Below are positions 1 to 62,637 of a stretch of DNA of 64,000 bases, piece by piece. Position numbers and translations under genes: made by a program. The stretch is taken from NCBI GenBank assembly GCA_016432285.1, contig CP066682.1:118434-182433 (forward strand). The letters run 5' to 3'. The stretch comes from Candidatus Kaiserbacteria bacterium (GTDB taxonomy: Bacteria > Patescibacteriota > Minisyncoccia > Phycocordibacterales > UBA2100). The notes below the pieces were generated by a model. It did no database searches. It was not told the DNA's origin and saw only the letters and a list, made by a program, of their open reading frames with translations. How positions within the stretch are numbered: position 1 is the first letter of the stretch; each line of letters starts with the position of its first letter.

Positions 1-533
1 TCAATGAAGTCGCACGCCCCGTCCGTGTTGGTGACGAAATATGACTCGGTAAGAACTCCGTGCAAAGAGCCATATACCGTCATACCATATCCGTCGTTCT
101 TAATTCCTTTATTGGGTAGATTAAGTGCGTTTACGATAGCCGGATGAATATAGCTTGCAAAGATTTTGTCGTTCTTTTGAGTCACAAAACTTTGAGTGTA
201 ATCCGCCGATGTGTTTGTCGAACCGTTATGGTGAATAGATATAAGCACGGTAGAGCCAGCTGCTTCTGCATTCGCTACTCTATCTTGTCGTGAATCTAAC
301 TGAGCGACTTCGTGATAAGTGCCAACGGGTAAAAGTTTTTCAAGCTCTAATCGAACTGCCCAGTTTACATCCGCTTCTATGACTGGAGTTCCGTTGCAGT
401 CTCCTACCGCACCTGTTTCCCCGTTGCCGTGTCCAGCATCGAGAGCTATGAGTTTTCCGTCAAACGGAGTAGCCGCACTGACTGGAAGTGCCATTGTTAA
501 TACCAGTCCTAGAATCGCTATAGAGTTTTTCAT
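1..533 (-). CDS. N-acetylmuramoyl-L-alanine amidase (Amidase_3 / CwlD-like), 3' end runs off window edge
   Basis: Minus-strand translation from ATG at 533: MKNSIAILGLVLTMALPVSAATPFDGKLIALDAGHGNGETGAVGDCNGTPVIEADVNWAVRLE...LISIHHNGS... Signal peptide plus the DAGHG and HHN motifs are typical of Amidase_3. The frame continues past position 1. Low GC. Confidence 0.6.
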   Translation of the reverse strand, partial: MKNSIAILGLVLTMALPVSAATPFDGKLIALDAGHGNGETGAVGDCNGTPVIEADVNWAVRLELEKLLPVGTYHEVAQLDSRQDRVANAEAAGSTVLISIHHNGSTNTSADYTQSFVTQKNDKIFASYIHPAIVNALNLPNKGIKNDGYGMTVYGSLHGVLTESYFVTNTDGACDFI

Positions 534-580
534 ATATTTTTAATAATACTCTTAACTAATAATTCCTCAATTTGCTCAAA

Positions 581-988
581 TCATTCTCTTTGATTTGAGT
601 CGAAAACAACCTTACCCCCGATAATCATTTTTTGTAGAATCCAACTTTCGTTCTCTAGTCTCATAAGCACAGACCAGTCACTTCTAATCATTGCGCCAAA
701 GCTATTTTGCGAATCTACATACGAAATGACCTGATATGAGCCGTTTCCGTCTGTCCCTGCGTGAACAGGCATTATCGGAAACTCAGCGGTGGACGGCGCT
801 TTGAGTCCTCGTAAGACGAACTGTTGTGCTTGAACATGAAGCTCGATTTCATCTGGCACATACGGCTTATTGGTGGGTGGCGAGCTTTCGCCAAAGAAAA
901 CAAAATATCCCCATGTAAGAAAAAGGAGTGGGGCGACCACCAGCATTATGCCTTTTGGTATTGTTCGTTGTTTTGTAAAAACATTCAT
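581..988 (-). CDS. hypothetical membrane-anchored protein, upstream of the amidase
   Basis: 135-aa ORF with an N-terminal hydrophobic segment (IMLVVAPLLFLTWGYFVFF). Low GC, same strand as the amidase. No recognisable motif. Confidence 0.4.
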   Translation of the reverse strand: MNVFTKQRTIPKGIMLVVAPLLFLTWGYFVFFGESSPPTNKPYVPDEIELHVQAQQFVLRGLKAPSTAEFPIMPVHAGTDGNGSYQVISYVDSQNSFGAMIRSDWSVLMRLENESWILQKMIIGGKVVFDSNQRE

Positions 989-1071
989 ATATGGAATCAG
1001 CTACCCTCATTTGCATTATATAACAATATAACAAGTAGTTATATTCCATATAGTTATAGAACATAGATGGT

Positions 1072-1293
1072 ATGAAGAAGACCATTTATGATGATGACTA
1101 CAAAATCTTTGTTAGGAAGCTAAAGAAAGCTCGTAGCGAATCGGGTTTGACTCAGATTCAAGCAGCAAAAAAGCTTGGTTCTACCCAAGCGTATATTTCA
1201 AAAGTAGAGTCTGGTCAGTTGCGAGTCGATGTTTCTCAACTGAAAAAGTTTGCCACCATGTACGGAAAAAGCATCAGCTACTTTTTAAAGTAG
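1072..1293 (+). CDS. XRE-family helix-turn-helix transcriptional regulator (possible RM controller/C protein)
   Basis: 73 aa; LTQIQAAKKLGSTQAYISKVESGQ is a Cro/C1-type HTH signature. Sits immediately upstream of the RM genes. Confidence 0.6.
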   Translation: MKKTIYDDDYKIFVRKLKKARSESGLTQIQAAKKLGSTQAYISKVESGQLRVDVSQLKKFATMYGKSISYFLK

Positions 1294-1304
1294 CCTGCTT
1301 TGAT

Positions 1305-1541
1305 TTAGATGTCCTGTAGAAGTTTTGAAATAGAAACACCTATGCCTTTAGCAAGCTTGCTTATTGTAAAAAGAGTCGGATTCTTTTTTCCTTGTTCGAG
1401 ATTGCTTATATAACTTTTATCCGCGCGGATAGATTTCGCAATTTGCATTTGAGACAATCCTGCCTTCAAACGCGCCTTCCTTAGATTCCTTCCGAATCGC
1501 GGGTAAAGATCGTTTCTCATGAAGTTATCCACAGAATACAT
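1305..1541 (-). CDS. XRE-family helix-turn-helix transcriptional regulator
   Basis: 78 aa; LSQMQIAKSIRADKSYISNLEQGKKNP is a Cro/C1-type HTH. Convergent with the previous regulator; the stop codons are 11 nt apart. Confidence 0.6.
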   Translation of the reverse strand: MYSVDNFMRNDLYPRFGRNLRKARLKAGLSQMQIAKSIRADKSYISNLEQGKKNPTLFTISKLAKGIGVSISKLLQDI

Positions 1542-1622
1542 CGTTACTTTTTAATAAGATAGTTGTATTATAGTACAACCAGTGTATAATACAAGGGTAA
1601 TGCTAAAATATAACTATCCCTC

Positions 1623-2642
1623 ATGAGATATTACGGCTGTAAAACAAAGCTTTTGGATTATATTTCTGATGTCGTTGCATCTCTTTCTGTAAAAAAAGGG
1701 GCAACTTTTTTTGATATCTTCAGTGGTACTGCTGCAGTCGGGAAACATTTTAAGAGACTGGATTACACGGTCTACTCAAATGACTTTTTAGAGTTTGCAC
1801 ATGCCTTTGCACGTTGCTATATCGAGACAAACTCAAAGCCCAGGTTCGCTAACCTGAAGATTAACGAGGATGTTATTGCGTACTTGAATGAGTTGAAAGG
1901 AAAAGTTGGTTTTATTACAAAGAACTACTCGCCTTATGGAAAAAATGTCCGCCAGTATATTTCCGTGGAGAACGCAAAGAAGGTTGATGTTATAAGGGAA
2001 ACTATTGAATCTTGGAAAAAATCAAAGAAAATATCATCAACGGAGTATTACTACCTTATAACCAGTCTGATAGACGCGATTAATCTGGTAAGCAACGTTA
2101 CTGGAACTTATGCCGCATATTTGAAGACTTGGGACGCTCGTGCTTTGAAGCCAATGAAGCTTTCGCACCCCAAAATAATCCCGAGCATTAGAGAGAACAA
2201 ATCGTTTAATGAAGATGCAAATAAGTTAATCAGTAAATATCGCGTAGATATTTTATATTTAGACCCGCCGTATAACGCCAGACAATTCGCCTCTAATTAT
2301 TTTTTTCTTGAGTTGATAGCAGAGGGATGGTTTAAAAAACAACCTGAGATATATGGCGGTTCGGGAATGCGTCCTTACGAACACCAAAAATCTGATTACT
2401 CGATTTCAAGAAAAGCGGCAGATGCTCTGAACGATTTAGTGATGAAAGCGAAAGCAAAATACATCTTATTGAGCTATAACAATGAGGGCATTATCCCTCA
2501 CGAAAAGATAAGAGAGATACTTAGCAAGCGTGGAAAAGTTAAAGTATTCGAGAAAAGTCATCGAAGATATCGTGCAATCAATCAAGACGGTAGTAATGTT
2601 GTAACGAAAGAGAGCTTGTTTCTAGTTAAAGTCGAAAAATGA
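1623..2642 (+). CDS. DNA adenine methyltransferase, D12 (Dam-like, alpha) class
   Basis: 339 aa. AdoMet motif I (FDIFSGTAAVG) lies N-terminal and catalytic motif IV (DILYLDPPYN) C-terminal, which is the alpha order of D12-class N6-adenine MTases. Confidence 0.75.
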   Translation: MRYYGCKTKLLDYISDVVASLSVKKGATFFDIFSGTAAVGKHFKRLDYTVYSNDFLEFAHAFARCYIETNSKPRFANLKINEDVIAYLNELKGKVGFITKNYSPYGKNVRQYISVENAKKVDVIRETIESWKKSKKISSTEYYYLITSLIDAINLVSNVTGTYAAYLKTWDARALKPMKLSHPKIIPSIRENKSFNEDANKLISKYRVDILYLDPPYNARQFASNYFFLELIAEGWFKKQPEIYGGSGMRPYEHQKSDYSISRKAADALNDLVMKAKAKYILLSYNNEGIIPHEKIREILSKRGKVKVFEKSHRRYRAINQDGSNVVTKESLFLVKVEK

Positions 2643-2643
2643 T

Positions 2644-3447
2644 ATGGCATCAAAAATGAACAACTTGTCGGGAAAAGAGTGGTTGCAAAACTCTTTTACT
2701 ATCTGGAGAGATATCGCAAAAACAAATGGCGAACGAAAACTAAAACACCCAGCGATGTTTCCTTCGCAACTTGCTGAGAAGCTAATCAATATCTACACAA
2801 AAGACCCCGGAGAGGTCATTTTAGACCCATTTTTGGGCATTGGCTCAACTCTATTGGCCGCTTATAGAACTGGTAGAAAAGGAATCGGGATTGAGTTAAA
2901 TAAAGATTATTGCAAGATAGCAAAAACAAGAGCAACTGAATATCAAGGAGAGATTTTTGAAACAAACATAGAAAGATTTGCTCCAGAAGTATATTGCGCA
3001 GATTCACGCAATTTACTGAAGTATGTGAAACCAGAATCAGTAGACTTAGTTGTTACTTCCCCGCCATACTGGGATATTCTCAACATGAAAAGAAGCGCAG
3101 ATTCTAAAGAGATTCGCAACTATTCTGACTCAAAAAAAGATTTAGGAAACATCAACGACTACGAAGCATATTTGCAAGACTTAAAGGCAGTCTTTGAGAA
3201 AGTTTATGTGGCATTAAAACCAAATAAACGATGCTGTTCAGTTGTTATGGATATTCGAAAAAAAGATAAATTCTATCCTTTGCACGAAGACCAGACTAGA
3301 ATAATGAAAGAGATTGGTTTTGAGATTGAAGAGTATGTAATCTGGGATAGACAGAAAGAATACAACAACATGAAAACACTCGGATATCCGTATGTTTTCC
3401 GATTTAACAAGGTACACGAGTTTGTTTGTATCTACTGGAAGCGGTAG
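2644..3447 (+). CDS. DNA methyltransferase, N6_N4_Mtase family (permuted motif order)
   Basis: 267 aa. KHPAMFPSQLAEKLI...VILDPFLGIGSTLLAA (motif X plus motif I) is followed about 70 aa later by DLVVTSPPYW (motif IV). The start is 2 nt after the preceding MTase stop. Confidence 0.75.
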   Translation: MASKMNNLSGKEWLQNSFTIWRDIAKTNGERKLKHPAMFPSQLAEKLINIYTKDPGEVILDPFLGIGSTLLAAYRTGRKGIGIELNKDYCKIAKTRATEYQGEIFETNIERFAPEVYCADSRNLLKYVKPESVDLVVTSPPYWDILNMKRSADSKEIRNYSDSKKDLGNINDYEAYLQDLKAVFEKVYVALKPNKRCCSVVMDIRKKDKFYPLHEDQTRIMKEIGFEIEEYVIWDRQKEYNNMKTLGYPYVFRFNKVHEFVCIYWKR

Positions 3448-3951
3448 TTAGTTGAGCAGGAAGTCCTTTTTGTTGAAAGGTACAATGGAGTTTTGATTTA
3501 TTGAATCTGATTTCTCATCCCAAGCAAAAATAGTTATTTCTCCACCGCCATTAAGTTGTAGAATTCGTTTTCTAATGTCATCGTCAAGCAATAGTATATT
3601 TACTTCACTTGAAAGTCCTCTGGTAGAAGCAAGAAATACAAGGGTGGATTTTGTAAGACGAGCGTAGCAGTTGATTTCTCCGATTTCTTTCAAACTGAGC
3701 GCAGAGGTCGATCTGTTTAACAACACGACTTCCTTATGCTTAGTCGTTTTGTCTTGGATGATACCAAACACATCTGGCTTGAAGTCCCACGATGAATAAT
3801 TCTGAAGTCCTTTAATATGTTCGTTATTTAGTTTTGCCAGACTTGAAGTTGGAGCTAACACTTCAAGTACTGTATGTGTGGAAGCAAGCTTTCTTTTAAA
3901 AAAACTTTCTAACCACTGTCTCATTTTTTCTGTAAAATCATTTTTTTCCAT
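3448..3951 (-). CDS. hypothetical protein, RM-associated (possible specificity/accessory subunit)
   Basis: The ORF track gives 183 aa from 3999. An internal start MEKNDF at about 3951 would begin just after the upstream nuclease stop (3956); the longer form overlaps that gene by 44 nt. No recognisable motif. Confidence 0.35.
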   Translation of the reverse strand: MEKNDFTEKMRQWLESFFKRKLASTHTVLEVLAPTSSLAKLNNEHIKGLQNYSSWDFKPDVFGIIQDKTTKHKEVVLLNRSTSALSLKEIGEINCYARLTKSTLVFLASTRGLSSEVNILLLDDDIRKRILQLNGGGEITIFAWDEKSDSINQNSIVPFNKKDFLLN

Positions 3952-3955
3952 ATTT

Positions 3956-5590
3956 TTATATCTCGATAGATTCGAGGGATTTGCCTGTCCAAACTCCAAG
4001 TTTTATACGCTTTCCTTTGGAGTATTCCAGTAAGTCAGGACGTGCTTTTAAAATCATGACAAGTGATGTCGCGATTGGTTTGTTGGAGACAAGTAAAGCT
4101 TCTTCAGGTTGAGCAACAAAACAATATCCTAAGAGTTGCCCGATTGCTTTCAAATCAAGGGGCGTTATTTTGGCTTCAATAAAAGCAATACGGCGCGTTT
4201 TTGTTAAAAAGCCCACGATGTCAGGACGAATTCTGTACTGGTCGCAGTAATCAAAGACTTCGAGCAGGCTTGGGTTTCTATTTTTCAAAAATAGATTTAG
4301 ATTTCCTGCTGACGTATCAAATGTTATTACATCCTCTTCATATTTTTTGGTTAGATACTCATGCAGATAATCCGAAAGTGGCTCGTATAGAGAAGATTCA
4401 AGTACTGATTCTGCATCTTGTTCTTTCCGCAGCTTCTTTTCAGTTGGTTCTGCGCCTTTTGCAAAAGCTTCCTCTTTAAGTTTTGTGCTAATCGCATCTC
4501 TTTCTCTCATAAGAACGTCTATATCCCCATCGCCTTTCGAATCGCCCGTTAATGCAAAGTACTCTAGATTTTTTGAATGTTTCTGTAATTCGCCTAGGAA
4601 TTTGCAACCCATAGCTAGGTTTATTTGCCAGAATGCGTCGAAGTGCTTCCTAGCGGGTTCTGGTATCCGCAAATCCTGTTCTCCCGGATGATATGCTTTG
4701 ATTTTTCCGGTTGTAACTTTGGACGGTGGAAACCAATCATCTTTATCTTTAAAGACTGTGGCGACATTATGATTATGCAACTCATCGAAAAGAGACTGTT
4801 TTGAACTTATCCTGAACTTAAACATTCCATAGTATTCGGGAAAGAACTTTAGTTGATGTTCACGGCTCCAAGTTGTCGGACGAGCATTAAAAAAGTCGGT
4901 AAGATTTGCATCTCTGATGTTGGGATGTCCCCAGTCAATGGTGTGAATAGGGAGTCCGAACTCTGAACGTAAAAAATTATCTATCTCGACAGGCAGGTGC
5001 CAGTTTCGCACTAACTGAAAATATACTCTCATTCTGCCGTGTCCTTTTTCACCGTCACGGTTTAACCAACCGCCAGGAGAAGGAAAACCAGAAGTGTCTA
5101 GCAATCCATTTATAAATTCGATTTTCGATGCTTTCTCTACTTCGTGAATGGCTTTTGGTATATGGAATCTATCAAAACTCGTGTCTGGCACAAAATGTGA
5201 AAGTACCTCATCAAATACTTTTCCATAGTCTTGAAAATCCACGACCAATAAAGTCATGGTTTTGTTGCCTGTTATATCGAACTTCGCGCCTATCTCTTTG
5301 CTGAGAAACGGGATGATTACATTCTTTAATGACTCAACAGCAGATACTGGTTGGTTGTATGTTTTCTTTACTGAAGGGTCAACGGGTTTACCACAAGCAG
5401 GATTTTTGCACTTCAGGCCGTTGCCATTATTGGTTGCCAGCCAACCGCATACGGGACAATGTGCAATACCTTCCGCATATTCGTTGGCATGTGAAAATTC
5501 GATAGCGATTATTTTGCTATCGTGAAATAGGTGTCCTCTCCCTGTTATGAGCCCTAAAAAATAGGAAAATGTGGGTGTAATGGATTTCAT
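3956..5590 (-). CDS. putative restriction endonuclease: LAGLIDADG-like/zinc-ribbon N-terminal region plus C-terminal PD-(D/E)xK nuclease
   Basis: 544 aa. N-terminal FLGLITGRGHLF and FINGLLDTSGF resemble paired LAGLIDADG motifs. CPVCGWLATNNGNGLKCKNPACGKP is a Cys4 zinc ribbon. The C-terminal YRIRPDIVGF...RRIAFIEAK fits the D...(D/E)xK nuclease core. Adjacent to two MTases. Confidence 0.55.
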   Translation of the reverse strand: MKSITPTFSYFLGLITGRGHLFHDSKIIAIEFSHANEYAEGIAHCPVCGWLATNNGNGLKCKNPACGKPVDPSVKKTYNQPVSAVESLKNVIIPFLSKEIGAKFDITGNKTMTLLVVDFQDYGKVFDEVLSHFVPDTSFDRFHIPKAIHEVEKASKIEFINGLLDTSGFPSPGGWLNRDGEKGHGRMRVYFQLVRNWHLPVEIDNFLRSEFGLPIHTIDWGHPNIRDANLTDFFNARPTTWSREHQLKFFPEYYGMFKFRISSKQSLFDELHNHNVATVFKDKDDWFPPSKVTTGKIKAYHPGEQDLRIPEPARKHFDAFWQINLAMGCKFLGELQKHSKNLEYFALTGDSKGDGDIDVLMRERDAISTKLKEEAFAKGAEPTEKKLRKEQDAESVLESSLYEPLSDYLHEYLTKKYEEDVITFDTSAGNLNLFLKNRNPSLLEVFDYCDQYRIRPDIVGFLTKTRRIAFIEAKITPLDLKAIGQLLGYCFVAQPEEALLVSNKPIATSLVMILKARPDLLEYSKGKRIKLGVWTGKSLESIEI

Positions 5591-5677
5591 GCGACATTAG
5601 CCTGTCGCTAAAATCCTCGCATTTTTTAGGGCAAAAGTACAGCCATACTACTATATATTTGTTGTTTTATAAGCCAA

Positions 5678-5885
5678 CCACCATTTTGGTTGGTCTGCAA
5701 AAAATTTCACGAAGAGTATCCGCCTACTTATATGGCACAATGCAGGCCTGTTTTTTTTACTACTTTTTACAAACCGACCACCAATTTGTTCGTACCGCTA
5801 AAACGGTGAAACCTCTCTTTCCAAGCCGACCTCTAGGATGGTCGGTTTGCAAAGATGCCCTTTCCGTAAGGCAGAGCATCATTTT
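5678..5885. repeat. three degenerate hairpin-containing repeat units (AAGCCRACC...GGTYGGT(C/T)TGCAAA)
   Basis: Unit 1: taagccaaccaccattttggttggtctgcaaa. Unit 2: aaaccgaccaccaatttgttcg. Unit 3: aagccgacctctaggatggtcggtttgcaaa. Each has a CCRACC/GGTYGG inverted repeat. Intergenic, between the nuclease gene start and the 2TM gene stop. Confidence 0.4.
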
Positions 5886-6058
5886 TTATAAAAATCTGCC
5901 TGTGTTGGCACTCGTTTTTGAAGTTCGGCTTGCTCCTGAAGTTTTTGAATGACTCATCCATAGGCCACTTTTACTGGCCTCGCACCAACAAAGTTTCTGC
6001 TTCTGTAAAAAGACTCACTCGCGTGCGTACGCGAAATTATAGCGGTCTATTTGCAGTG

Positions 6059-6682
6059 TCAGCGAGTTTCTACTCGCTTCACCTCGATTGTTCCAAAGTT
6101 GTTCCTATCTCTTCCTGAGTAGTAGTATCCTGCCAATGAATTACTATCGGGGCCATAGGTTAATTTTGCTGAGCCTTCGTGCATAGCCATTGTCTGTGTA
6201 GCATCGTATGACGGTTCATTCCTGAAAAAGTAAAACAGTGCTACTCGGTTATCTATCTCACTTCTACCAAAGTTTTCATGGATGCTAACGGACTTCGATT
6301 TGTTAAAAGTTCCACAGATTTTTATTTTTGTTGCAGTTTGCTCGATTACAAGCTGCGCCTCTATGTCAGTTGCAAAGTTGTCGTAAGAAGATTTTAAACT
6401 GCCGACCCACTTTCCATTTAAATCATCGGCTACAATAATGCCGAGCCGTTTAAAGATTTTCTTTTTCCAAAGAAATCTATCAAACAACACAAAAAGAAAA
6501 GCATACACCGCAGGAATAGACGGTGTTTCAATATAAAAAGGCACGACAATCCCGTATGACTTCAAGGTGTAAGAAATCATATAGACGACTACGGCACTGA
6601 TACCAACTAATATCAAAATGAATGCCGTGAACTGTTTGTAGTTGTTGCCGTCGATGTTCATATAGATGTCCAGTTGTCCCAC
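6059..6682 (-). CDS. 2TM effector with predicted beta-rich C-terminal domain (Cap15-like; CBASS/NTase-associated membrane effector)
   Basis: 207 aa. Two N-terminal hydrophobic helices (FTAFILILVGISAVVVYMISYTL; IPAVYAFLFVLFDRFLW), then about 130 aa with eight alternating beta-like segments (KWVGSLKSS, AQLVIEQ, KIKICGTF, SVSIHENF, VALFYFF, MAMHEGSAKLTY, LAGYYYSG, GTIEVKRV). Overlaps the upstream NTase gene by 25 nt. Confidence 0.5.
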   Translation of the reverse strand: MGQLDIYMNIDGNNYKQFTAFILILVGISAVVVYMISYTLKSYGIVVPFYIETPSIPAVYAFLFVLFDRFLWKKKIFKRLGIIVADDLNGKWVGSLKSSYDNFATDIEAQLVIEQTATKIKICGTFNKSKSVSIHENFGRSEIDNRVALFYFFRNEPSYDATQTMAMHEGSAKLTYGPDSNSLAGYYYSGRDRNNFGTIEVKRVETR

Positions 6683-7572
6683 AAGTGAGCCAATGCACTT
6701 AGTGTTTTTGTCGCGTTGTCATGATGCCAGTGAATACCGGAGTTTCCGAAAAGTTCATGCTGTCCGCTTTGGGTGGTAAAATCTTGCTTGTTGTTTTCGA
6801 TGAGATATTTCAGCGTGTTATAGACGGCCGTACTGTCGTTTCCTGCGAAATGTTCGTTTGGCACATTGTAAATCATGCACTGCAAGAAATATGAGGGCGC
6901 GACGTCTTTGTGGAGAAGTCCTTTGTCTACTGCGTATGCTCGTGCATTTTTGATAATACGAACAATCCTTTTAAAAGCATCAGAGGTCGCTTTGTGTTTG
7001 GCGACGCCGTTGGAATAGTGTTGGTCTGGGTAGTTTATAACCTCTGCATTTGTCATTCGGTGATAGAACATAATACCCTCTACTTTGGCGTGATTCGTGT
7101 GGCCTAGAAAGTAAGAATAGTTGCGGTGCGCGATTACTGGCACGATGTCTGCACGCAAACGGCCATTATTTTTTTGCACTTTGATTGATTTGTTTCCCGA
7201 GACATCAACAGAAGCCACACCATAATACTCATTCAATGCTGTAATAATGTCGCGACGTAAATGCGACCAGTCATATGTCGCTACTGGATATGTTTGCTCG
7301 TGAAGCAAGAACTGATTTGTTGGAAGTGAGTACTTGTTCGAGCCAAAGACATTGAGCCGCACGAGCACATCTACATCACTGTCGCCTCTGGTGTTTGTGT
7401 CGTTTGCGTACGACCCCTGCAAATCGACTCGTATATTGCCCGAGGCAATCTTTTCTCGAATCGGTGACTTACTACCAGTCAGCGCGTTCCTGACCGACTG
7501 GTATGTGGTACTAGAAAGGTCTTTTGAACCTTGTTTTGCCCATGTTTCCAATTGGTCAGCGGGTATCGCCAT
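6658..7572 (-). CDS. minimal nucleotidyltransferase, CD-NTase/SMODS-like (putative signal synthase)
   Basis: 304 aa. GSYANDTNTRGDSDVDVLV matches the pol-beta NTase signature [GS]-x10-[DE]h[DE]h. The size and the downstream 2TM partner are typical of type I CBASS-like operons. Low GC. Confidence 0.6.
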   Translation of the reverse strand: MAIPADQLETWAKQGSKDLSSTTYQSVRNALTGSKSPIREKIASGNIRVDLQGSYANDTNTRGDSDVDVLVRLNVFGSNKYSLPTNQFLLHEQTYPVATYDWSHLRRDIITALNEYYGVASVDVSGNKSIKVQKNNGRLRADIVPVIAHRNYSYFLGHTNHAKVEGIMFYHRMTNAEVINYPDQHYSNGVAKHKATSDAFKRIVRIIKNARAYAVDKGLLHKDVAPSYFLQCMIYNVPNEHFAGNDSTAVYNTLKYLIENNKQDFTTQSGQHELFGNSGIHWHHDNATKTLSALAHLWDNWTSI

Positions 7573-7573
7573 G

Positions 7574-7783
7574 TTAGTCCAGATTATTTCCCTCTTTCCC
7601 GTCAGGGTTTGAAACAGGTGTTCTCACTCCGTTAACGACACGGACATGATAATTTTCATAGTCGCCACATTCTATTTTTTGCACGAACTGAGTGCGTGTC
7701 ATATTTCTGCCAGTAGCGTTGTCATGAAACTGAAGATTCCGACCTGATTCGCTTTCGTCCGTGACTGTTACTCTTTTTGCCAT
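7574..7783 (-). CDS. small conserved protein, DUF3892-like
   Basis: 69 aa. TRTQFVQKIECGDYENYHVRVVNGVRTPVSNPDGKEGNNLD recalls the DUF3892 pattern (call made from memory). Only 1 nt from the NTase start, same strand. Confidence 0.35.
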   Translation of the reverse strand: MAKRVTVTDESESGRNLQFHDNATGRNMTRTQFVQKIECGDYENYHVRVVNGVRTPVSNPDGKEGNNLD

Positions 7784-7784
7784 G

Positions 7785-8414
7785 TTAGTTTAGTGGGTTA
7801 GGTATGCTGTTAATGACTACTCCCTGCACCATGAAATCGCCCTCAAGGATAATCGGCTTATGTGCAGGGTTGCTCGACCGAGGCACGAGTACCACCTTGT
7901 CTCCTTTTCTTTGAAACTCCTTGACGGTGGCGTCATCACCGATGAGGGCAACAACACGCTCTCCGTTGTCTGCAACAGGTTGCTGTCGAACTACGAGCAG
8001 GTCGCCGTCCTTGATTCCACTTTTGTTCATGGAGTCACCCGTAGCTCGGAGCAGAAAATACTGCGCCCCTGGTTTCGCAATTCGCTGAGAAACAGGAACC
8101 CATGCTTCTATGTTTTCTTCCGCTAAGAGCGGTAGCCCGCATGGAACTGAACCGACAAGAGGTATTTCCACTACACGTTCTGTCTCCGTTCTTCCGCCGA
8201 GGTCTTTTAGCAACCGCAAGCTACCCATAGCGGTACGTTCAAGGTAGCCCAGGTCTACGAGTCGTTCGATAAGGAGTGCCGCAGAACGAGAGGAGCCGAA
8301 TCCCATATGCTTCGAAATCTCCCGTAATGTAGGAGATTTACCACGATAAATAATGTAGTCGCGGATATAGAAAAGCCCTTTAAAATCTCGGGGGTTTAAG
8401 CCTTTGGTACTCAT
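7785..8414 (-). CDS. lexA: LexA-like repressor (HTH plus S24 peptidase)
   Basis: N-terminal HTH (TLREISKHMGFGSSRSAALLIERLVDLGYLER). C-terminal S24 Ser/Lys dyad region (LLRATGDSMNKSGIKDGDLLVV...KVV). The ORF track starts at TTG 8423; the first ATG is at 8414. GC is intermediate (about 52%). Confidence 0.8.
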   Translation of the reverse strand: MSTKGLNPRDFKGLFYIRDYIIYRGKSPTLREISKHMGFGSSRSAALLIERLVDLGYLERTAMGSLRLLKDLGGRTETERVVEIPLVGSVPCGLPLLAEENIEAWVPVSQRIAKPGAQYFLLRATGDSMNKSGIKDGDLLVVRQQPVADNGERVVALIGDDATVKEFQRKGDKVVLVPRSSNPAHKPIILEGDFMVQGVVINSIPNPLN

Positions 8415-8463
8415 GGTACTCAAAGCTTACCATATGCGTTTTTTATTTGCAAGCCCCCCTCTT

Positions 8464-9423
8464 TTAATAACCGACCTCGGCAAAAAGGACGCCGCGATGC
8501 GCGAGCGTCGCTTCTCCCGGCCGGATGCCGCTCGATCCGCCGCCGATCAAGGATGCGTACGAAGAAGTGTGATGCGGTGAGCGGAAGGGCGGCCGGTACA
8601 CCGGGCCGCCGAGGAGACCGAGGAGAATACCCGCGAGCGAGTGGATGGTGGTTACTTCGATCATCTCCTCTTCGCCAAGGTCGGGGAGTACGGATGCGGT
8701 GGCGCGTGCGAGGAGCGTTTTCCCGGTGCCCGGAGGGCCCCACAGCGCGATGTTGTGTCCGCCCGCGGCGGCGATGATGAGCGCGCGCTTCGCGCTCTCT
8801 TGGCCGCGGATTTCGTCGAGGGCCGTGTCTTCGGGCTCGGCGCGCTTTATTTTCTGCACAGCAGAGCGTGGCTTCCCTCTGCCTCCGAGTTGCGCGAGCG
8901 CGTCTTCGAGTGAAGCAACCGGATGCACGCGCAGCCCCGAGATCAGCGATGCTTCCGCAGCATTTTCTTCCGGCATGAAAAGATCGGTGAATCCGCGATC
9001 GCGCGCTTCGCTCGCGATCGAGAGCGTGCCGAGAATCGGGCGGATCGTACCGTCGAGGGCGAGCTCTCCCGCAAATACTTTGCCCGCAGGGTCAAATGCT
9101 GCCTGTTCCGATGCGAGGAGGAATGAGAGCGCGAGCGGGAGATCGAATGCTGCGCCCTCCTTTTTGAGCGCGGCGGGCGCGAGCGAAAGAACGATCTTCT
9201 TGTTGCTCTTTTTGGGCGACTCGAGGTCGTTGGTATTTTTGATTGCGGCTGCGAGACGATCCTTCGCCTCTTCCACCGACTTGTCGGGGAGTCCGACGAT
9301 GGCAAACGCGTGGAGGCCTTTCACGATGTCGCACTCCACGCTCACGATGGTCGCTTTTGGCAGCGCGGGCTGTGCGCCAAAGACGCGCGCGAAGCCCGAT
9401 TTTATTTTTTGTGCGCCGGCCAC
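8464..9423 (-). pseudogene. comM: comM/yifB (Mg-chelatase-like AAA+ competence protein), truncated at Walker B
   Basis: 319 aa with the Lon-like/ChlI N-terminal domain and Walker A (GPPGTGKT). The ORF ends ...HRGVLFAEVGY*, exactly where intact ComM has GVLFLDELPEF. The C-terminal third (about 190 aa) is missing, and high-GC sequence gives way to the low-GC island here. Confidence 0.7.
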
Positions 9424-9853: not shown

Positions 9854-11557
9854 CTAGAGCCTGCGGACGGCGCGCAGCCTGCTTAAAATTTCGGTGAAGG
9901 AGTACGGGCTCTCTCCGATGATCAGGATTCCCTGCGTCGGAAATGAATAGTAGAGCTCGATCGTGCCGCCGTCGTCCTTGAGGGCGCGGACGTCGTAGTT
10001 GCGCATCACGACGTCGCTAAAGGTGCGCTTTTGCGGCAGTCCACCCGCACCGAGCACCTGTTCTGGAACGGGCGTGAATGCGGGCGAAAGATCGGCGTTG
10101 AGCGTTTGCTCCCATGCGAGCATGCCCGCAAAGGCACGCTCGTAGGAGAGCACCGGTATCACAAGGAGCGGCGCATTTTCGTCGACCGTGTGAATGCCGA
10201 AGAAGAAATCGCTGGAGAGCGCGCGCACTAAGTCTGCGGGCGCGCGCGTGCCGAGCGCCCCGAGAAATTCTTCGAGCGTGGCAGCGCGCTCGTAGGGAAC
10301 GCCTTCCTCATCGGTCGCTGTCTTGGTGGGGACGATGCGGGTGATCGATCCGAGCGTTGCACTAGAAGCGCCGCGCGCCGAGGCGATGAGGCGCTTCAAA
10401 TCGAGCGCGTTCTGATTATCGAGCGGAAGTGAGACGGTCGTTTCGGAAAAAAGAAGCGAAGGGGCTTCGGTGCTCGGCGCGCCCCCGCGCTGCTGCGAAA
10501 TAATATACACGCCGAAGAACGCTCCGACGCCGAGCACCGTGAGGAGCGCCGCAGCGAAAATAATGTTGGCCGTGCGACGGGACCGGTGCGTCGCCACCTG
10601 CTCCTCGATCTTTTCGGCGCTGCGGCCATATCGCTTCTCTTGCTCGAGCGCCGCCGCGCGAACGAGCGAGATCTTTTTCTCGCGCACGATGACCTGGAGA
10701 TCGTCTTTGAGAGTTCGAAGCGGCGAAACGATCGACGACGAAAGATCCCTTTTCGGCTCGGGGGCGGGTGCGGATGCGGGCGGCACGCTCGCGCCGAGCG
10801 TTGTATCAAAGGTACGGGCCTCCTCAACTTTCTGCGGGGCGATCGACGAGGGTTGCGAGCGATCCGGCAGTTTGACCTCCTCGAGAATCTTCGCGAGCTC
10901 CGGCGGCTTCTGTACGGCGCCGCTTTGCGGCACAAAGACCGACTCGCGCGCTCGCTCGGCTGCGGGAATCACCGCAGGGGCGGGAGCAGGGGGCATCGGC
11001 TCTGCTCTCGCGGGTGCTGCTGCTGGCATTGGTGGCTCTTGCCGCGGCGCGATCGTTGGGGCGGGCTTCGGTGCCGCTGGAGGAGCGGGCCGTACGGGTG
11101 CGGGCGCAAACGGCATTTCCGGCAAAATGCCTGCCGCAAGCGCAGCGCTGTTGAGGCCATGCGGGTGCTGTTCCGCTGGCTTTGGTATCGGTGTTTTTGA
11201 TGGTACCGGATCGAGCGAATCAAGCGCGATCATCGGCGGCTCCTTTTTTTCAGCGGTCGGAATCGGCGCCGGTGGCGCCGATGGTGAAGTTGTCTCCAGG
11301 GGCGTGATCGGTATTTTCGGCGGAATGAAGATGGGAGCCGTTTCTTCCTTTTGCGGAACGGGAGAAGCGGGAGCGGGCGGTGGAGGCGTCGGTGGTTGCG
11401 GAAGTGGGGCTGGTCGCGGAGCTGGCGCCTTCGGCGCGGGCCTGATCACCGTCTCTTCGAGAATCGTTGCTTCGGGCTCCTGCGCCGGAGTAGATTTCGC
11501 AGCCGCAGGACTTTGCGGATTAGATGCGGTGTCGCGGCGGGCCGTTTCGTCTGCCAT
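9854..11557 (-). CDS. proline-rich single-pass membrane protein, hypothetical
   Basis: 567 aa. Long Pro/Ala-rich N-terminal region, one TM segment (IIFAAALLTVLGVGAFFGVYIIS) and a C-terminal domain without a recognisable motif. The start may lie downstream of the first ATG (38-nt overlap with pnp). Confidence 0.4.
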   Translation of the reverse strand: MADETARRDTASNPQSPAAAKSTPAQEPEATILEETVIRPAPKAPAPRPAPLPQPPTPPPPAPASPVPQKEETAPIFIPPKIPITPLETTSPSAPPAPIPTAEKKEPPMIALDSLDPVPSKTPIPKPAEQHPHGLNSAALAAGILPEMPFAPAPVRPAPPAAPKPAPTIAPRQEPPMPAAAPARAEPMPPAPAPAVIPAAERARESVFVPQSGAVQKPPELAKILEEVKLPDRSQPSSIAPQKVEEARTFDTTLGASVPPASAPAPEPKRDLSSSIVSPLRTLKDDLQVIVREKKISLVRAAALEQEKRYGRSAEKIEEQVATHRSRRTANIIFAAALLTVLGVGAFFGVYIISQQRGGAPSTEAPSLLFSETTVSLPLDNQNALDLKRLIASARGASSATLGSITRIVPTKTATDEEGVPYERAATLEEFLGALGTRAPADLVRALSSDFFFGIHTVDENAPLLVIPVLSYERAFAGMLAWEQTLNADLSPAFTPVPEQVLGAGGLPQKRTFSDVVMRNYDVRALKDDGGTIELYYSFPTQGILIIGESPYSFTEILSRLRAVRRL

Positions 11558-13706
11558 GCATATCTCCGCCGCCTTCCGAAGGCTTCACGCCTTTGCGGGC
11601 AGCCCACTCGGGATCCGCGGCTTTGATAGAAAGATTATACCGTCCCTTTTCATCGATTTCTTTGATGACGACGGGGACGACGTCGCCGATCTGCACGGCA
11701 TCGGAGATTTTGCCGATGCGAAACGGCGCAACTTCCGAAACGTGCACGAGTCCGTCGTTGTTGGGGCCGATCTTCACGAAGGCGCCGAAGTCCATGAGGC
11801 GCACGACCGGGCCCTCGAAGCGATCTCCCACCATGTATTCGCGCGTGAGATCTTCGATTTCCTTGAGTGCAGCTTCGGCGGTGCCTTGGCGGCCCGTAAT
11901 GAAGATCGTGCCGTCTTCTTCGATGGTGATCTCGTCGCAGCCGGTGCGGTCTTTGATGCCGTTGATCATCTTGCCGCCGGGGCCGATCACGAGGCCGATC
12001 TGGTCGACCTTCACTTTGGTCGTGAGAATCTTCGGCGCGCGCGGCGAGATGTCGGCGCGCGGCGCGGGAATCGCTTTTTGAATCACTTCAAGAATCTGCA
12101 TGCGGGCTTTCTTGGCCTGAGCGAACGCCTCGGAAAGCACCTTCAGGGGCACGCCGTCGACTTTCACGTCCATTTGCACGCCCGTCACGCCCTCGCTCGT
12201 ACCTGCGACTTTGAAATCCATGTCGCCGTGATGATCCTCCGGGCCCTGGATGTCGGTGAGCACTTTGTAGACGCCCGCCTTGGCGTCGCTCATCATGCCC
12301 ATCGCGATGCCTGCGACGGGCCTACTGATCGGCACGCCGGAATCCATGAGCGCGAGCGTACCCGCGCACACGCTCGCCATCGAGGTGGAGCCATTGGAGG
12401 CGAGACAGTCGGCGACGATGCGAATCGTGTACGGGAAGTTTTCTTTTTGCGGCAGCACCGCGCGCAGCGACTTTTCGGCGAGCGCGCCGTGGCCGATCAT
12501 GCGGCGGTTCATGCCGCCCACGCGGCCGGTTTCGCCCACCGAAAACGGCGGGAAGTTGTAGTGGAGCATGAAGGTCTTCTTCTTGTCCTGGAACTCGATC
12601 GTGTCGATGAGCTGCGCGTCTCCCGGGCCGCCCAAGGTGAGTGCCGCCAAGACGTGCGTTTGGCCGCGGTAAAAAAGGCCGGTGCCGTGAATGACGGGCG
12701 AGATGCCTCCCGCTTGCGCAAAGAGCGGACGGATTTCGTCCATCGCCCTGCCGTCGACGCGCTTGCCTTCCTTGATCGCGAGATCGTGCACGTGCTCGTC
12801 GAGTTTGTGCTCGAAGATGCCGTCGGGGATCTGTGGCTTTGCGTCGGGGAACTTCTCGAGCGCGTGTTTCATCCATTCAGATTTCAGCGTACCGATGTCG
12901 CCCTTGTCCATCTTTCCGTCGAGGGCGAGGAGTTTCGGACGCATCACGCTCTCAAACTCCGCTTCGATCTCGCCGCTCTCCATGGGTGCAGCAAACGTCT
13001 GCTTGGCGACGCCGCGCTCTGCCACGATGCTCTTCTGCCACGCCTGGATCTTTTCGATCTCCTCGCTGGCTCGTGCGAGGCAGTGCTCCACATGCTCTTC
13101 GCTCACTTCGCGCGCGCCGACTTCGATCATGTTGACGAGGCCGTCCTTGCCGGACACGGTGAGATCCATCTTGGCCCGCGGCGGCAGCTCATCGCTGCGC
13201 TGTCCGTAGCTCGGATTGACGATCGGCGTCGGGTCGTCTTCGACGAGCCCCACGCGCACTGCGGAGACGGGGCCGTTCCACGGAATGTCGGAAGTGGCGA
13301 GCGCGAGAGAGGCGGCGTTGACCGCGAGAATGTCGGTGTCGTAGTCCTCGATCGAGAGCACCGTGATGATCACCTGCACGTCGCGCTTCAGCCCCTTCGG
13401 GAAAAGCGGGCGGATCGTGCGGTCGACGATGCGGCCGGAGAGCACTGCCTCGTCGGAGGGTCGGCCTTCGCGGCGCACGAATCGGCTGCCCAAAATGGCG
13501 CCGGCGGCGTAAAACTTTTCCTCGTACTCGACGGAGAGTGGGAAGTAATCGAGATTCGATTCCTTGTTGCTCATGACGACAGTCGCGAGAACCGCACTGT
13601 TGCCGTACCGCAAAAGCACCGAGCCGTTGGCTTGGTCGGCCCAGTCGTTAAACTCCGCGATCATCGTTTTCCCCGCGATTTCGAGGGAATACTCTTTTTT
13701 CTGCAT
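11520..13706 (-). CDS. pnp: polynucleotide phosphorylase
   Basis: 728 aa. Two RNase PH-like domains plus C-terminal KH and S1 (…GDVVPVVIKEIDEKGRYNLSIKAA). Unambiguous family resemblance. Confidence 0.9.
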   Translation of the reverse strand: MQKKEYSLEIAGKTMIAEFNDWADQANGSVLLRYGNSAVLATVVMSNKESNLDYFPLSVEYEEKFYAAGAILGSRFVRREGRPSDEAVLSGRIVDRTIRPLFPKGLKRDVQVIITVLSIEDYDTDILAVNAASLALATSDIPWNGPVSAVRVGLVEDDPTPIVNPSYGQRSDELPPRAKMDLTVSGKDGLVNMIEVGAREVSEEHVEHCLARASEEIEKIQAWQKSIVAERGVAKQTFAAPMESGEIEAEFESVMRPKLLALDGKMDKGDIGTLKSEWMKHALEKFPDAKPQIPDGIFEHKLDEHVHDLAIKEGKRVDGRAMDEIRPLFAQAGGISPVIHGTGLFYRGQTHVLAALTLGGPGDAQLIDTIEFQDKKKTFMLHYNFPPFSVGETGRVGGMNRRMIGHGALAEKSLRAVLPQKENFPYTIRIVADCLASNGSTSMASVCAGTLALMDSGVPISRPVAGIAMGMMSDAKAGVYKVLTDIQGPEDHHGDMDFKVAGTSEGVTGVQMDVKVDGVPLKVLSEAFAQAKKARMQILEVIQKAIPAPRADISPRAPKILTTKVKVDQIGLVIGPGGKMINGIKDRTGCDEITIEEDGTIFITGRQGTAEAALKEIEDLTREYMVGDRFEGPVVRLMDFGAFVKIGPNNDGLVHVSEVAPFRIGKISDAVQIGDVVPVVIKEIDEKGRYNLSIKAADPEWAARKGVKPSEGGGDMHGRRNGPPRHRI

Positions 13707-14325: not shown

Positions 14326-15318
14326 ATGCCGCGCATGAGAGTGCTCATCTTTCCCACCGTCGTCGCCCTTTTCGCCTGCGTCGCAGCGTACCTCTGGGGC
14401 GGACTCAACGCGCTTTTCACCGTCGCCCTCCTTGCCGTGCTCGAAACCACGCTCTCCTTCGACAACGCCGTCGTCAACGCGAAGGTCTTGCAGCGCATGG
14501 AAGCCGTGTGGCAGAAACGCTTTTTGCAGTGGGGCATCCCGGTGGCGGTCTTCGGCACGCGCTTCGTGCTTCCGATTTTCATCGTCTCGTTTGCGGCCGG
14601 CCTCGGGCCGCTCGTCGTTTTGAATCTCGCGATCTTCGACCCGCTGCAATACGGACACCTCTTGGAGGGCGCGCACGTGGCGATCGCATCCTTTGGAGCC
14701 GCCTTCCTCTTTCTCGTCTCTCTCAAGTATTTCTTCAACGACCGCAAGACAGTGCACTGGATCGAGGTGATCGAAAAGTATCTCTCGCGCTGGGGCGGCG
14801 TCGAGGCGATCGAGGTGGCGCTCACGCTCATCGTGCTCCTCGTCTCCGCGCTTATCCTGCCGATGGAGGCCGCGACGATCCTCGTAGCGGGAGTCATCGG
14901 TGTCGTGCTCTTTATCGTGATCGAGGGAGTGGCGCAGGCTTTCGAGATGCAGGCCGGTGCCGACATCGCAAAAAGCTCGATCGCGCTCTTTGTGTACCTC
15001 AACGTGCTCGACGCGGCCTTCTCGCTCGACGGCGTCGTCGGTGCTTTTGCCGTCACGAGTAATCTCTTGATGATCATCGCGGGCCTCGGCATCGGCGCTC
15101 TTTATGTGCGAAGCGCAACGGTGTATCTCGTGCGCGCCAAGACACTCGAATCGCTTCCCTACCTCGAGCATGGTGCGCACTGGGCGATCTTCGGGCTCGC
15201 GATCGCGATGCTCGGCAGCCTCTTCGTGCGCGTGCCAGAGCCCTTCACCGGATTCATCGGACTCGTCTTTATCGTACTCGCGTACATTTCTTCGCGCCGC
15301 GAAATGCGAAAAGCCTAA
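14326..15318 (+). CDS. TerC-family integral membrane protein
   Basis: Multi-pass membrane protein with the LSFDNAVVNA motif typical of TerC/DUF475. The start is taken at MPRMRVLIF (14326); an in-frame upstream ATG is at 14245. Confidence 0.7.
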   Translation: MPRMRVLIFPTVVALFACVAAYLWGGLNALFTVALLAVLETTLSFDNAVVNAKVLQRMEAVWQKRFLQWGIPVAVFGTRFVLPIFIVSFAAGLGPLVVLNLAIFDPLQYGHLLEGAHVAIASFGAAFLFLVSLKYFFNDRKTVHWIEVIEKYLSRWGGVEAIEVALTLIVLLVSALILPMEAATILVAGVIGVVLFIVIEGVAQAFEMQAGADIAKSSIALFVYLNVLDAAFSLDGVVGAFAVTSNLLMIIAGLGIGALYVRSATVYLVRAKTLESLPYLEHGAHWAIFGLAIAMLGSLFVRVPEPFTGFIGLVFIVLAYISSRREMRKA

Positions 15319-20270: not shown

Positions 20271-20870
20271 TCACGTGTCTATCAGTTTTTCCGCTTCTTT
20301 CAAATGATTAGGAAAGATTACCAACCCGGCATTAATAAGGCATTTGAGATAGTCATCGAATGAGAGCCTGGGATTCTTCAATGCTTTTCTATGTTCTTTG
20401 ATCGTCTCCAATGTCTGATCTCGTTCTAAAGAAAGGTGATGAGTCAAGAATTGATCCGGGTGCTGTACTTCAATCCCAAAAGGAGCAAGAACATCGGAAG
20501 GAAAATGTTTTGTATTTGCAGTGACTATAAGGTCACAGCGGCCGCAAAGAGCCGCGATGACGACGTGTTCGTCTTTTGCGTCGGGCAGTTTCAAGCCAGG
20601 AACTGCGACGCCGTTACACTCTATTAGTGCGTCGGGAAATGCGATCCCCATGCGCTCAGTTACGTAGTCGATCTGCTGATTGGTAAGTCCAGCCTTTTTC
20701 AATAGGGCCTCTCTAAGCTCTTTCAGTATGTGGTCACTCCAGTGGATCCGGAACGTATCTCTCAATGCCAAGCGCAAAATGATGTCTCTTAGATATGAGG
20801 GATAGAGAACATTTGTGTCGAGGAAGACAGCGAATTTAGAGATCTGGAAGTTTATGGGGTCCATGCTCAT
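20271..20870 (-). CDS. PIN-domain toxin-like protein
   Basis: 199 aa; [15 protein letters not shown] starts a PIN fold with acidic residues at the expected positions. Lower GC than neighbours. Overlaps the upstream HTH gene by 35 nt. Confidence 0.6.
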
Positions 20871-21321
20871 TTGAGAATTCTGCTAGCTCATCAAGCGCCC
20901 GTTTAGCATCCGCCTTGCGCTGCGTAAGATATTTCATCAGATCCTGGAACAAAATCCGCCTGTGAGTACCAACCATATGATGAGGAATACTGCCGGCGTC
21001 TAATATTTTGATCAGATGCGGCCTCGAAACATTCAAGAGATTAGCGGCTTGGTGTGTTGTAAGTTCGGCGTGATACGGAACGATAGATACCGCACGGCCT
21101 TTGGACAAATCAAAAAGCATTCTTCTGAACAGTTCCACTATTACCGGATCTTGCACCTCAATTTGTTTTTTGTTTGTATCTACAAGAATTAACGACCCCA
21201 ATTCCCTCAAAAGATTGGCCGCAAATTCGATCGTGTTCTTATCCGGAACTATGGGTGTTAGAGGACTTAGAACACCTCTAGAATCGGGTATAACCTTGGT
21301 GTTTGAAGCTGAGTTCTTCAT
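20836..21321 (-). CDS. HTH (excisionase/MerR-like) DNA-binding protein, putative antitoxin
   Basis: 161 aa; [37 protein letters not shown] is an HTH_17-type motif. Immediately upstream of the PIN gene. Confidence 0.5.
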
Positions 21322-62613: not shown

Positions 62614-62637
62614 GACCCGCAGGTTAGACCTGCGGGT
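62614..62637. repeat. REP element gacccgcaggttagacctgcgggt (3' flank of RAYT, overlaps its stop codon)
   Basis: Same palindrome family as 15340..15366 and 63321..63356. Confidence 0.65.

Follow-up and report, generated by a model that had tools for sequence, protein, structure and literature searches.

The window analyzed here is a 64,000-nt stretch of a Candidatus Kaiserbacteria genome (contig CP066682.1, positions 118,434 to 182,433). Its left end is part of an integrated island of 14,888 bp with a GC content of 41.7%, which interrupts the host gene comM. We are confident, short of certainty, that this island is an element inserted by a large serine recombinase (LSR), that it belongs to a family spread over the candidate phyla radiation (CPR), and that the members of this family carry arrays of alternative attP sites. 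An earlier note, made from the letters of the window, had reported a genomic island in comM. This is correct; taken alone it is a fairly ordinary finding, raised by the family context and the attP arrays, neither of which had been foreseen, nor had the type of recombinase.

The comM 5′ fragment (window 8464-9423, minus strand) encodes 319 aa, comprising ComM residues 1-314 and then four island-encoded codons (E-V-G-Y) and a stop. Its C-terminus reads ...AHRGVLFAEVGY (...HRGVLFAEVGY, then the stop), and the host-derived part stops at ~8477-8480. The Pfam domain ChlI is complete, and the Mg_chelatase profile is covered over positions 2-111 of 207 only. The truncated protein is identical to NCBI protein P0001 (‘ATP-binding protein’, Ca. 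Kaiserbacteria). The uninterrupted ComM/YifB relatives P0002 and P0003 (77-78% identity; Candidatus Kaiserbacteria or Parcubacteria) run on through Walker B and supply the empty comM site that the earlier note had proposed to look for in related genomes. The insertion splits ComM after residue 314, inside Walker B as that note had read it, and the island end that it placed at 8480 falls within the junction found at window 8477-8482. The GC content, calculated in 500-nt windows, amounts to 0.36-0.47 at window 1-8000, 0.49-0.57 at 8000-8750 and 0.58-0.66 beyond, with 43-51% in the final 1.3 kb of the island (7000-8400). The drop at the end of comM was thus rightly seen, while the figures first given for it (65% to 40%) were slightly generous, the means being 59.1% for the host part (8500-64000) and 41.0% for the island part.

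Logan contig L001 (14,948 bp, run SRR12113420), which was found by exact-protein look-up of a window gene, shows the remainder of the island. Over its first 8,506 bases, L001 matches the opposite strand of window 1-8506 with no mismatch, and a further 6.4 kb follow, in agreement with the expectation that the island runs past the window start. L001 begins 30 nt inside the comM 5′ fragment, and its far end reads ...CAACCACT followed by GCCGACGAGTTTCCCGAGTTTCACCGCGA (in a longer stretch, ...TTCAACCACT-GCCGACGAGTTTCCCGAGTTTCACCGCGA). Its last 29 bases encode A-D-E-F-P-E-F-H-R, in frame with the ...HRGVLF of the 5′ fragment. The predicted upstream location thus holds for the second junction as well as for the part of comM that continues Walker B, and since both junctions complete one frame, precise excision would rebuild an uninterrupted comM. 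The attL site (window 8456-8505, minus strand) consists, on the comM sense strand, of the B arm (comM ...GVLF), the central GC (8480-8481) and the P′ arm CGAGGTCGGTTATTAAAAGAGG; attR is located to the left of the window, at L001 ~14895-14945. Both have only TGCCGA (8477-8482) in common, with GC at positions 1-2 of codon X. The crossover occupies the first two bases (GC) of this one variable codon in Walker B, GVLF-X-DEFPEF. The reconstructed attB is GGCGTCCTTTTTGCCGACGAGTTTCCCGAG and the attP of the circular form is CAACCACTGCCGAGGTCGGTTATTAAAAG. The 859,170-bp NCBI contig to which the truncated ComM belongs is also the recorded source of four island-encoded proteins, namely the exact LSR (QQG38045.1), a 70-aa protein (QQG38044.1, HYS26_00610), p294 and an amidase, so the published genome holds the whole island.

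The LSR (L001 12847-14610, 587 aa) is what lies upstream, where integrase or Tns genes had been proposed as a check. It contains the domains PF00239 (Resolvase; E-value 2.5e-36), PF07508 (Recombinase; 1.6e-19) and PF13408 (zinc ribbon; 5.6e-4), and the catalytic-motif residues Y17, R19, S21, T22, and Q25 are invariant in an alignment of 32 LSR homologues. The best NCBIfam matches are CcrB (1e-36) and CcrC (1.5e-29), with a score of 126 against a cut-off of 900 bits. For ten islands with both junctions, attB and attP were reconstructed. The block of identity between attL and attR is exactly 2 nt long (CT or TT) in L011, L012, L013, and L023, at positions 1-2 of the X codon, and 3-6 nt long in the remaining reconstructed islands, covering the same position. 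The crossover dinucleotide is the best inverted-repeat centre of attP in six of the ten and ties for best in L014; the inverted repeat of L012, for instance, is TTGTGGGACA-AAGGCA-TT-AGAGAC-TGTCCCACAA, and the attP of the present island is among the weaker ones (6/14 arm matches). A crossover of 2 nt at the centre of an inverted repeat is an established hallmark of serine integrases (PMC3783163, PMC3642061). This 2-nt crossover, as expected of an LSR element, is found in this family, and the junctions show no target-site duplication. Candidates for a recombination directionality factor are the conserved 56-aa open reading frame (ORF) located 5′ of the LSR gene and the 70-aa HTH_17 protein (L001 14687-14899) located 3′ of it.

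Directly upstream of the LSR gene, a 148-aa ORF with a resolvase domain was found (L001 12393-12839), whose catalytic motif reads YLRVES-EQ versus YLRVSTDEQ. Short ORFs with a resolvase catalytic domain also precede the LSR in L004 (9590-10141), L013 (9977-10414), and L012 (9742-9993). The 148-aa ORF could be a decayed second recombinase left by an element fusion, or an accessory subunit. In the related islands L011, L012, and L013, the LSR is split into two overlapping ORFs (residues 13-359 and 375-587; ~6414-8175, 9998-11762, and 10399-12151, respectively), which could reflect a frameshift, a sequencing error or programmed recoding.

Relatives were sought in GTDB genomes and JGI metagenomes, and breaks in comM were called by tblastn with uninterrupted ComM. 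The family counts 480 LSR homologues at E <= 1e-10. Among the non-redundant loci with an LSR that is at least 42% identical, comM is broken at residue 300-325 in 25 of 47, compared to none of the 38 loci with an LSR below 42% identity. The other 22 loci include 19 with less than 2.4 kb downstream of the LSR, two of which show the junction motif. All junctions located fall within codon X, which GVLF and DEFPEF flank, and judged by this comparison the present island belongs to a CPR-wide family that targets one comM codon. Across ComM homologues, residue X is A (83), L (12), T (10), C (8), V (1) or M (1). The host labels include Kaiser-, Zambryski-, Nomura- and Adlerbacteria, Paceibacterota and Saccharibacteria, and complete relatives are 8-12 kb long. 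The LSR of one of them, L003, is 92% identical to that of the present island, and the ComM of its host is merely 49% identical to the Kaiserbacteria reference, which indicates a recent transfer across deep lineages.

A repeat search revealed an inverted repeat in a 468-nt non-coding stretch of the present island, located between the gene for Cap15, an effector of a cyclic oligonucleotide-based antiphage signaling system (CBASS), and the gene for a 544-aa candidate restriction endonuclease. This stretch contains two internal attP sites and a weaker candidate, all on the minus strand. The first has a CT centre (window 5810-5861, core 5824-5849) and reads TTTGCAAACCGACC-ATC-CT-AGA-GGTCGGCTTGG in LSR orientation. 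The second, 25 nt past it, has a TT centre (5772-5797; (TAG)CGGTACGAAC-AAA-TT-GGT-GGTCGGTTTG), and the weaker candidate has an AT centre (5672-5697; CAGACCAACC-AAA-AT-GGT-GGTTGGCTTA). The arms of the CT site are 100% identical to both junction arms of L003, where the integration into comM split the site. Its P arm is also found at the comM junction in L016, L017, and L020, and as the close variant TTTGCAAACCGAACATC in L005. The TT site is uncut and 100% identical in L017, and its P arm abuts comM in L004/L018, where the host codon is TTG, so the TT site was used there. A site like the AT candidate is found in L017 at 1423. In the opposite direction, L003 retains an uncut GC-centred attP that is 96% identical over 52 nt to the site used by the present island.

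The present island has thus used a GC site and kept CT, TT and the weak AT uncut, while L003 used CT and kept GC, L017 used CT and kept GC and TT, and L004/L018 used TT and kept CT. The same pattern is seen in a second half-site subfamily. TT was used by L012 (uncut: CT, GT, and AT), by L010, L021, L027, L032, L033, L036, and L043 (uncut: CT) and by L040 (uncut: AT). CT was used by L013 and L011 (uncut: AT and TT, in L011 additionally GT and TG) and by L029 and L038 (uncut: AT and/or TT). The uncut CT site of L012 equals the used sites of L011/L013 except at the outer end of the P′ arm, where one or two bases differ. A scan of 955 kb with a half-site consensus that was built solely from used sites, with five shuffles as control, yielded 46 full sites versus 3-6 in the shuffles, and ~37 of the 46 are located within islands. 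A generic palindrome scan (at least 11/16 arm matches) was dropped as too noisy, with 664 real versus 380 shuffled hits.

Wherever a case was resolved, the host X codon begins with the very dinucleotide that was used, and the uncut sites carry a different one. The dinucleotides GC, CT, TT, AT, GT, and TG correspond to Ala, Leu, Leu, Ile/Met, Val, and Cys, respectively. Sites of the same type share 5.8 of 12 positions of the inner spacer, versus 4.1 of 12 between types. Only two islands, L003 (JAUYHD010000032.1) and L030, are inverted relative to comM, and for both of them the dinucleotide rule permits this. L030 used a palindromic AT, and L003 used CT on a Ser AGT codon, of which the antisense strand reads CT. 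They are natural cases in which the central dinucleotide alone sets the polarity of integration. The GC of the present island is also palindromic, so this element could in principle insert either way.

We propose that the arrays, which comprise two to five attP sites with common half-sites and differing central dinucleotides, are alternative attachment sites and act as a host-range device. As serine integrases would religate matching 2-nt overhangs only, solely an attP whose dinucleotide equals the start of the host X codon should give a stable insertion. An array could then let one element colonize hosts that spell X as Ala (GC), Leu (CT/TT), Ile/Met (AT) or Val (GT).

The additional attP-like sites might instead be relics of element fusions, or regulatory sites bound by the recombinase or a repressor, which we consider unlikely. 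The 148-aa resolvase-domain ORF, in which the canonical context of the catalytic serine is missing, and the similar fragments in L004, L012, and L013 do suggest earlier fusions, and the LexA-CBASS cassette between the GC and CT sites is richer in GC (45-51%) than the rest of the island. However, integration yields hybrid attL and attR sites, and relics would therefore not be uncut attP sites. Moreover, a site type that is uncut in one element is used in a close relative, in both directions, and the site types are conserved across elements together with their dinucleotide. The dinucleotides also mostly differ within an element, and as a set they match the residues allowed at X. Apart from their proposed role as alternative attachment sites, the attP sites may tentatively be seen as cassette boundaries as well, a possibility to which we give some weight though well short of an even chance. 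Single genes or modules are located between successive sites (in L012 the order is LSR, gene, CT, gene, GT, gene, AT, gene, TT), and the LexA-CBASS operon of the present island sits between its GC and CT sites. Defence modules might then be exchanged in an integron-like manner, and the choice of attP would set which module lies downstream of the comM promoter.

The conserved backbone of the element comprises an XRE repressor, a membrane protein, a RepO-like initiator, the 56-aa ORF (p56), the LSR and the 70-aa HTH_17 protein. RepO-like, p56, LSR and HTH_17 are conserved across the relatives, and HTH73, p135 and p58 are additionally common with L003. The 73-aa XRE-type helix-turn-helix (HTH) protein (window 1072-1293, plus strand) is 85% identical in L003. 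Its gene is divergent from a long operon that runs from p135 to the recombinase, which makes it the candidate repressor of the element. The membrane-anchored p135 (581-988, minus strand; 135 aa) is 58% identical in L003, also occurs in L014, and matches solely PHROG families of unknown function. A secreted Amidase_3 protein reaches into the window with the N-terminal 177 of its 216 aa (1-533, minus strand), and is followed on L001, left of the window, by p58, p294, p122, p71, p142, the RepO-like initiator (L001 11328-12083) and p56. An Rfam scan of the whole island gave nothing at E <= 0.1.

Alternatively, the island might be a small temperate phage or phage satellite, with the LexA/XRE repressors as lysogeny switch, the amidase as endolysin, and unannotated ORFs for either an unrecognized capsid or the redirection of a helper phage. 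The amidase resembles PHROG endolysin families, the RepO-like protein resembles phage replication initiators and p135 resembles phage proteins of unknown function; an S24 repressor and pairs of XRE proteins occur in it, and LSRs are typical phage integrases. We nevertheless rate a viral nature as improbable. No capsid, portal, terminase or other structural or packaging family was found with Pfam and PHROGs, either in the present island or in the 79 ORFs of nine related islands, and restriction-modification (RM) cargo occupies much of the 8-12 kb of the complete relatives. No relative of the LSR is present in IMG/VR (2.9 million contigs), and LSR matches in phage and plasmid collections, including 50,697 phage records, are at most 30% identical. 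The amidase, moreover, has a signal peptide and is missing from L003. For these reasons, we regard the members of the family as integrative defence islands of a plasmid-like kind and not as viruses.

A Tn7-like/AbaR-type transposon or a tyrosine-integrase island, as inserted into comM in Acinetobacter and Pasteurellaceae, would explain the identical target gene, and the literature on the comM hot-spot concerns such elements. This explanation is already refuted by gene content, with no TnsA-E, DDE transposase or Phage_integrase domain among the 22 island genes; neither a target-site duplication of ~5 bp nor terminal inverted repeats are present, and the crossover core is all that the junctions have in common. 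Equally refuted in our view is an assembly artefact, in which foreign low-GC DNA would be joined to a Kaiserbacteria contig at the truncated gene, as the sharp GC change within a metagenome-assembled genome and the earlier note itself had brought up: the independent Logan assembly repeats the first junction without a mismatch and adds a second that completes its reading frame, and the same-codon architecture recurs in 25 other loci from different projects, where island GC is 35-49% and host flanks span 32% to 59%.

Several points weigh against the interpretation as an LSR-inserted comM element with alternative attP sites. Three loci with an LSR of 50-52% identity (L007 (/L028), L008, and L035) show no comM in the 6.5-10 kb downstream; their cargo may be very long, or their target site another one. 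The AT site of the present island is weak, with 5/20 mismatches to the half-site consensus, and a promoter-like pair of hexamers overlaps with it. Of the comM 3′ half in this genome, solely the final 30 nt of L001 were seen. As five to six backbone ORFs lack any detectable homology, a novel small virion is conceivable. Recombination at the internal sites by the LSR is itself inferred, with the dinucleotide rule carried over from phiC31 and Bxb1, and for CPR transformation a role of ComM is presumed on the basis of work in Proteobacteria. Finally, the ‘TG’ site of L011 could pair with Cys codons, which is unproven.

The ends of the contigs point to a mixture of occupied and empty sites. Logan contigs derive from a de Bruijn graph with k = 31 (PMC12424806). 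At the start of L001, exactly 30 nt precede the first base in which attL and attB differ, and at its end, exactly 30 nt follow the last base in which attR and attB differ. These comM ends of 30 nt (k-1) fit a branch of the graph at both junctions, and the sample of L001 probably also contains an unoccupied comM allele. The JGI contigs L023 and L029 each consist of one island with ~120 nt of comM per side, which suggests that filled and empty comM alleles occur together in the same samples.

The variable cargo of the island consists of defence genes, namely a type I CBASS operon and an RM module with two methylases. The cargo named in the earlier note (RM genes, NTase/2TM, amidase, LexA-like repressor, and DUF3892) is borne out throughout by profile matches. 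The CBASS genes form a four-gene minus-strand operon (LexA-DUF3892-CdnE-Cap15) that begins 40 nt past the stop codon of the comM fragment. The first gene (window 7785-8423) encodes a LexA-type S24 repressor with a winged-helix LexA_DNA_bind domain (PF01726; 5e-8) and a Peptidase_S24 domain (PF00717; 4.7e-28), scoring 148.5 bits against TIGR00498 (lexA; cut-off 110.95). The second (7574-7783) encodes a DUF3892 protein of 69 aa, with a match to PF13031 just under the curated cut-off (E-value 4e-4), and is separated by only 1-2 nt from the lexA-like and CD-NTase genes on either side. The third (6658-7572) encodes a CdnE-like cyclase of the CD-NTase type, which matches the PADLOC profile Cyclase PDLC00788 over its full length (1.6e-99), the CdnE homologue PDB 6e0k (2e-53) and PF26305 (CD_NTase_C). 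The fourth (6059-6682), whose start overlaps the cyclase gene, encodes the effector Cap15 with two transmembrane helices and a cyclic-dinucleotide receptor β-barrel (PF18153, 7e-25; PF23471, 5e-5; PADLOC 2TM effector PDLC00703, 1e-55). The accessory genes Cap2/Cap3, HORMA/TRIP13 and QueC/TGT are absent beside this pair. On these profile matches, CdnE and Cap15 are assigned to type I CBASS, with LexA and DUF3892, and not Cap2-4, as neighbours. In a scan for promoters, the signal did not exceed that of the shuffles, and the space from the comM fragment to the lexA-like gene yielded no promoter. The operon is possibly under SOS-type control, functionally like CapH/CapP, or served by read-through from the comM promoter, the latter being speculation.

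In the RM module, two adenine methylases are certain. A D12-class N6-adenine DNA methyltransferase (window 1623-2642, plus strand) is matched at 6e-34 and by the PADLOC profile MTase_II at 3e-95, and an N6_N4-type DNA methyltransferase of the beta class (2644-3447, plus strand) was likewise identified by profile matches. A divergent gene (1305-1541, minus strand) encodes a 78-aa XRE-type HTH protein that is similar to RM control (C) proteins (Control_protein PDLC03665; 3e-15). Two minus-strand genes converge on the methylase genes. The first (3956-5590) encodes the 544-aa candidate restriction endonuclease, which combines an N-terminal domain of LAGLIDADG fold, into which a CxxC...CxxC zinc ribbon is inserted, with a PD-(D/E)xK motif in its C-terminal part. 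The residues D457, E472 and K474 are invariant and fit a PD-(D/E)xK nuclease. The AlphaFold model has a pLDDT of 87, and Foldseek matches the LAGLIDADG homing endonucleases I-DmoI and PI-SceI over the N-terminal half (E-values 4e-5 to 1e-3). Of the LAGLIDADG motifs, the first (LGLITGRG) has no acidic residue and the second (NGLLDTSG) has an invariant D165. No restriction endonuclease family in Pfam, PADLOC or NCBIfam matches this protein, and none of its 315 homologues has a Pfam annotation. The second gene (3448-3951) always follows the 544-aa gene, and its 167-aa product has no match in Pfam, NCBIfam or PADLOC. A paralogy of this product with the C-terminal nuclease domain of its partner was rejected, since BLASTP found no similarity. 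The order methylase, 544-aa gene, ~160-aa gene, methylase recurs in an Acinetobacter prophage and in Polynucleobacter, and two adenine methylases always flank the 544-aa protein. The invariant residues, the predicted fold and this conserved gene order support a restriction role of the 544-aa protein, short of proof. If so, its architecture would be unusual for a restriction enzyme, with a LAGLIDADG fold serving in DNA recognition. The cargo of related islands is overwhelmingly defence as well, with C5, N4/N6 and D12 methylases, HincII, AlwI, MutH-like and Eco57I nucleases, Shedu, reverse transcriptase, AAA_14/DUF4143, STAND, Schlafen, and PrimPol.

Outside the island, three host-side loci of the window were noted. 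Beside comM and dksA, a 567-aa host protein (window 9854-11557, minus strand) has a proline/alanine-rich N-terminal half and no Pfam match. A patch of 1 kb (20271-21321, minus strand) has a GC content of 47% within a 60% GC host and encodes proteins with HTH_17 and PIN_3 domains, probably an acquired toxin-antitoxin-like pair. Close to the right end (62624-63301, minus strand; GC 51%), there is a weak match to an IS200-like Y1 transposase (E-value 3e-4) under the Pfam cut-off.

Mobile elements of the CPR (Patescibacteria) are barely characterized, and the present family now has exact boundaries, a fixed target, mostly defence cargo and dozens of resolved insertions. It extends the disabling of comM by mobile elements to a whole bacterial radiation, for which a dependence on DNA uptake is presumed. 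If the interpretation of the arrays is true, they show how a serine-integrase element copes with drift of the codon at its crossover point and crosses deep host boundaries. The related integrases, with well-defined sites of 34-50 bp, are candidate tools for CPR genetics or multiplex integration. In the literature searched, we found only engineering papers, and neither a comM-targeting LSR family of the CPR nor natural multi-attP arrays, an absence that is no proof; the family is apparently widespread and undescribed.

Among known systems, the Ccr recombinases of SCCmec are likewise of the LSR family and move non-viral cargo islands, which insert at the end of a conserved housekeeping gene (rlmH). 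They differ in target gene and host, and the present LSR scores far under the cut-offs of their families. SPbeta, inserted in spsM, is a serine-integrase prophage that splits a host gene reversibly. In Listeria, phage A118 similarly uses an LSR, attP and attB with a 2-nt crossover and an intragenic site in comK, which is restored on excision (PMC3556126). A118 and SPbeta are phages with one attP and one host species, whereas the present family spans many CPR classes. The sr1WO prophages of Wolbachia phage WO, which an LSR integrates, also bisect a gene of the Mg-chelatase family (comM/yifB-type; PMC9203015), so that the halves flank the element, the likeness being one of gene family. With a size of tens of kb, an alphaproteobacterial host and the complete make-up of a tailed phage, WO stands in contrast to CPR islands of 8-15 kb with no virion genes, and multiple attP sites are not reported for WO.

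As an integration hot-spot, which the earlier note had called it, comM is documented for mobile elements in Proteobacteria, both AbaR/Tn7-like elements and tyrosine-integrase islands, with the proposed gain that an island that disrupts comM escapes curing by transformation (PMC11441513, PMC4774983, PMC12378983). The disruption of ComM would probably shield the present island from such removal as well. The AbaR/Tn6022-type and tyrosine-integrase mobile genetic elements of Acinetobacter, Aggregatibacter, Mannheimia, Pseudomonas, and Vibrio are likewise cargo islands that interrupt comM. They differ in that they rely on Tn7-like transposition or a tyrosine integrase instead of a serine integrase, belong to another host phylum, carry resistance instead of defence cargo, and have a single target site. 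The closest analogue of the arrays is found in the engineered orthogonal attP/attB pairs of phiC31, where the pairing of several sites is also set by the 2-nt overlap (PMC3936721). Those pairs are a laboratory design, whereas the arrays described here are apparently of natural origin, retained among divergent elements and linked to the codon variation of the target gene; if this holds true, engineered orthogonal dinucleotide att pairs have here their first counterpart in nature.

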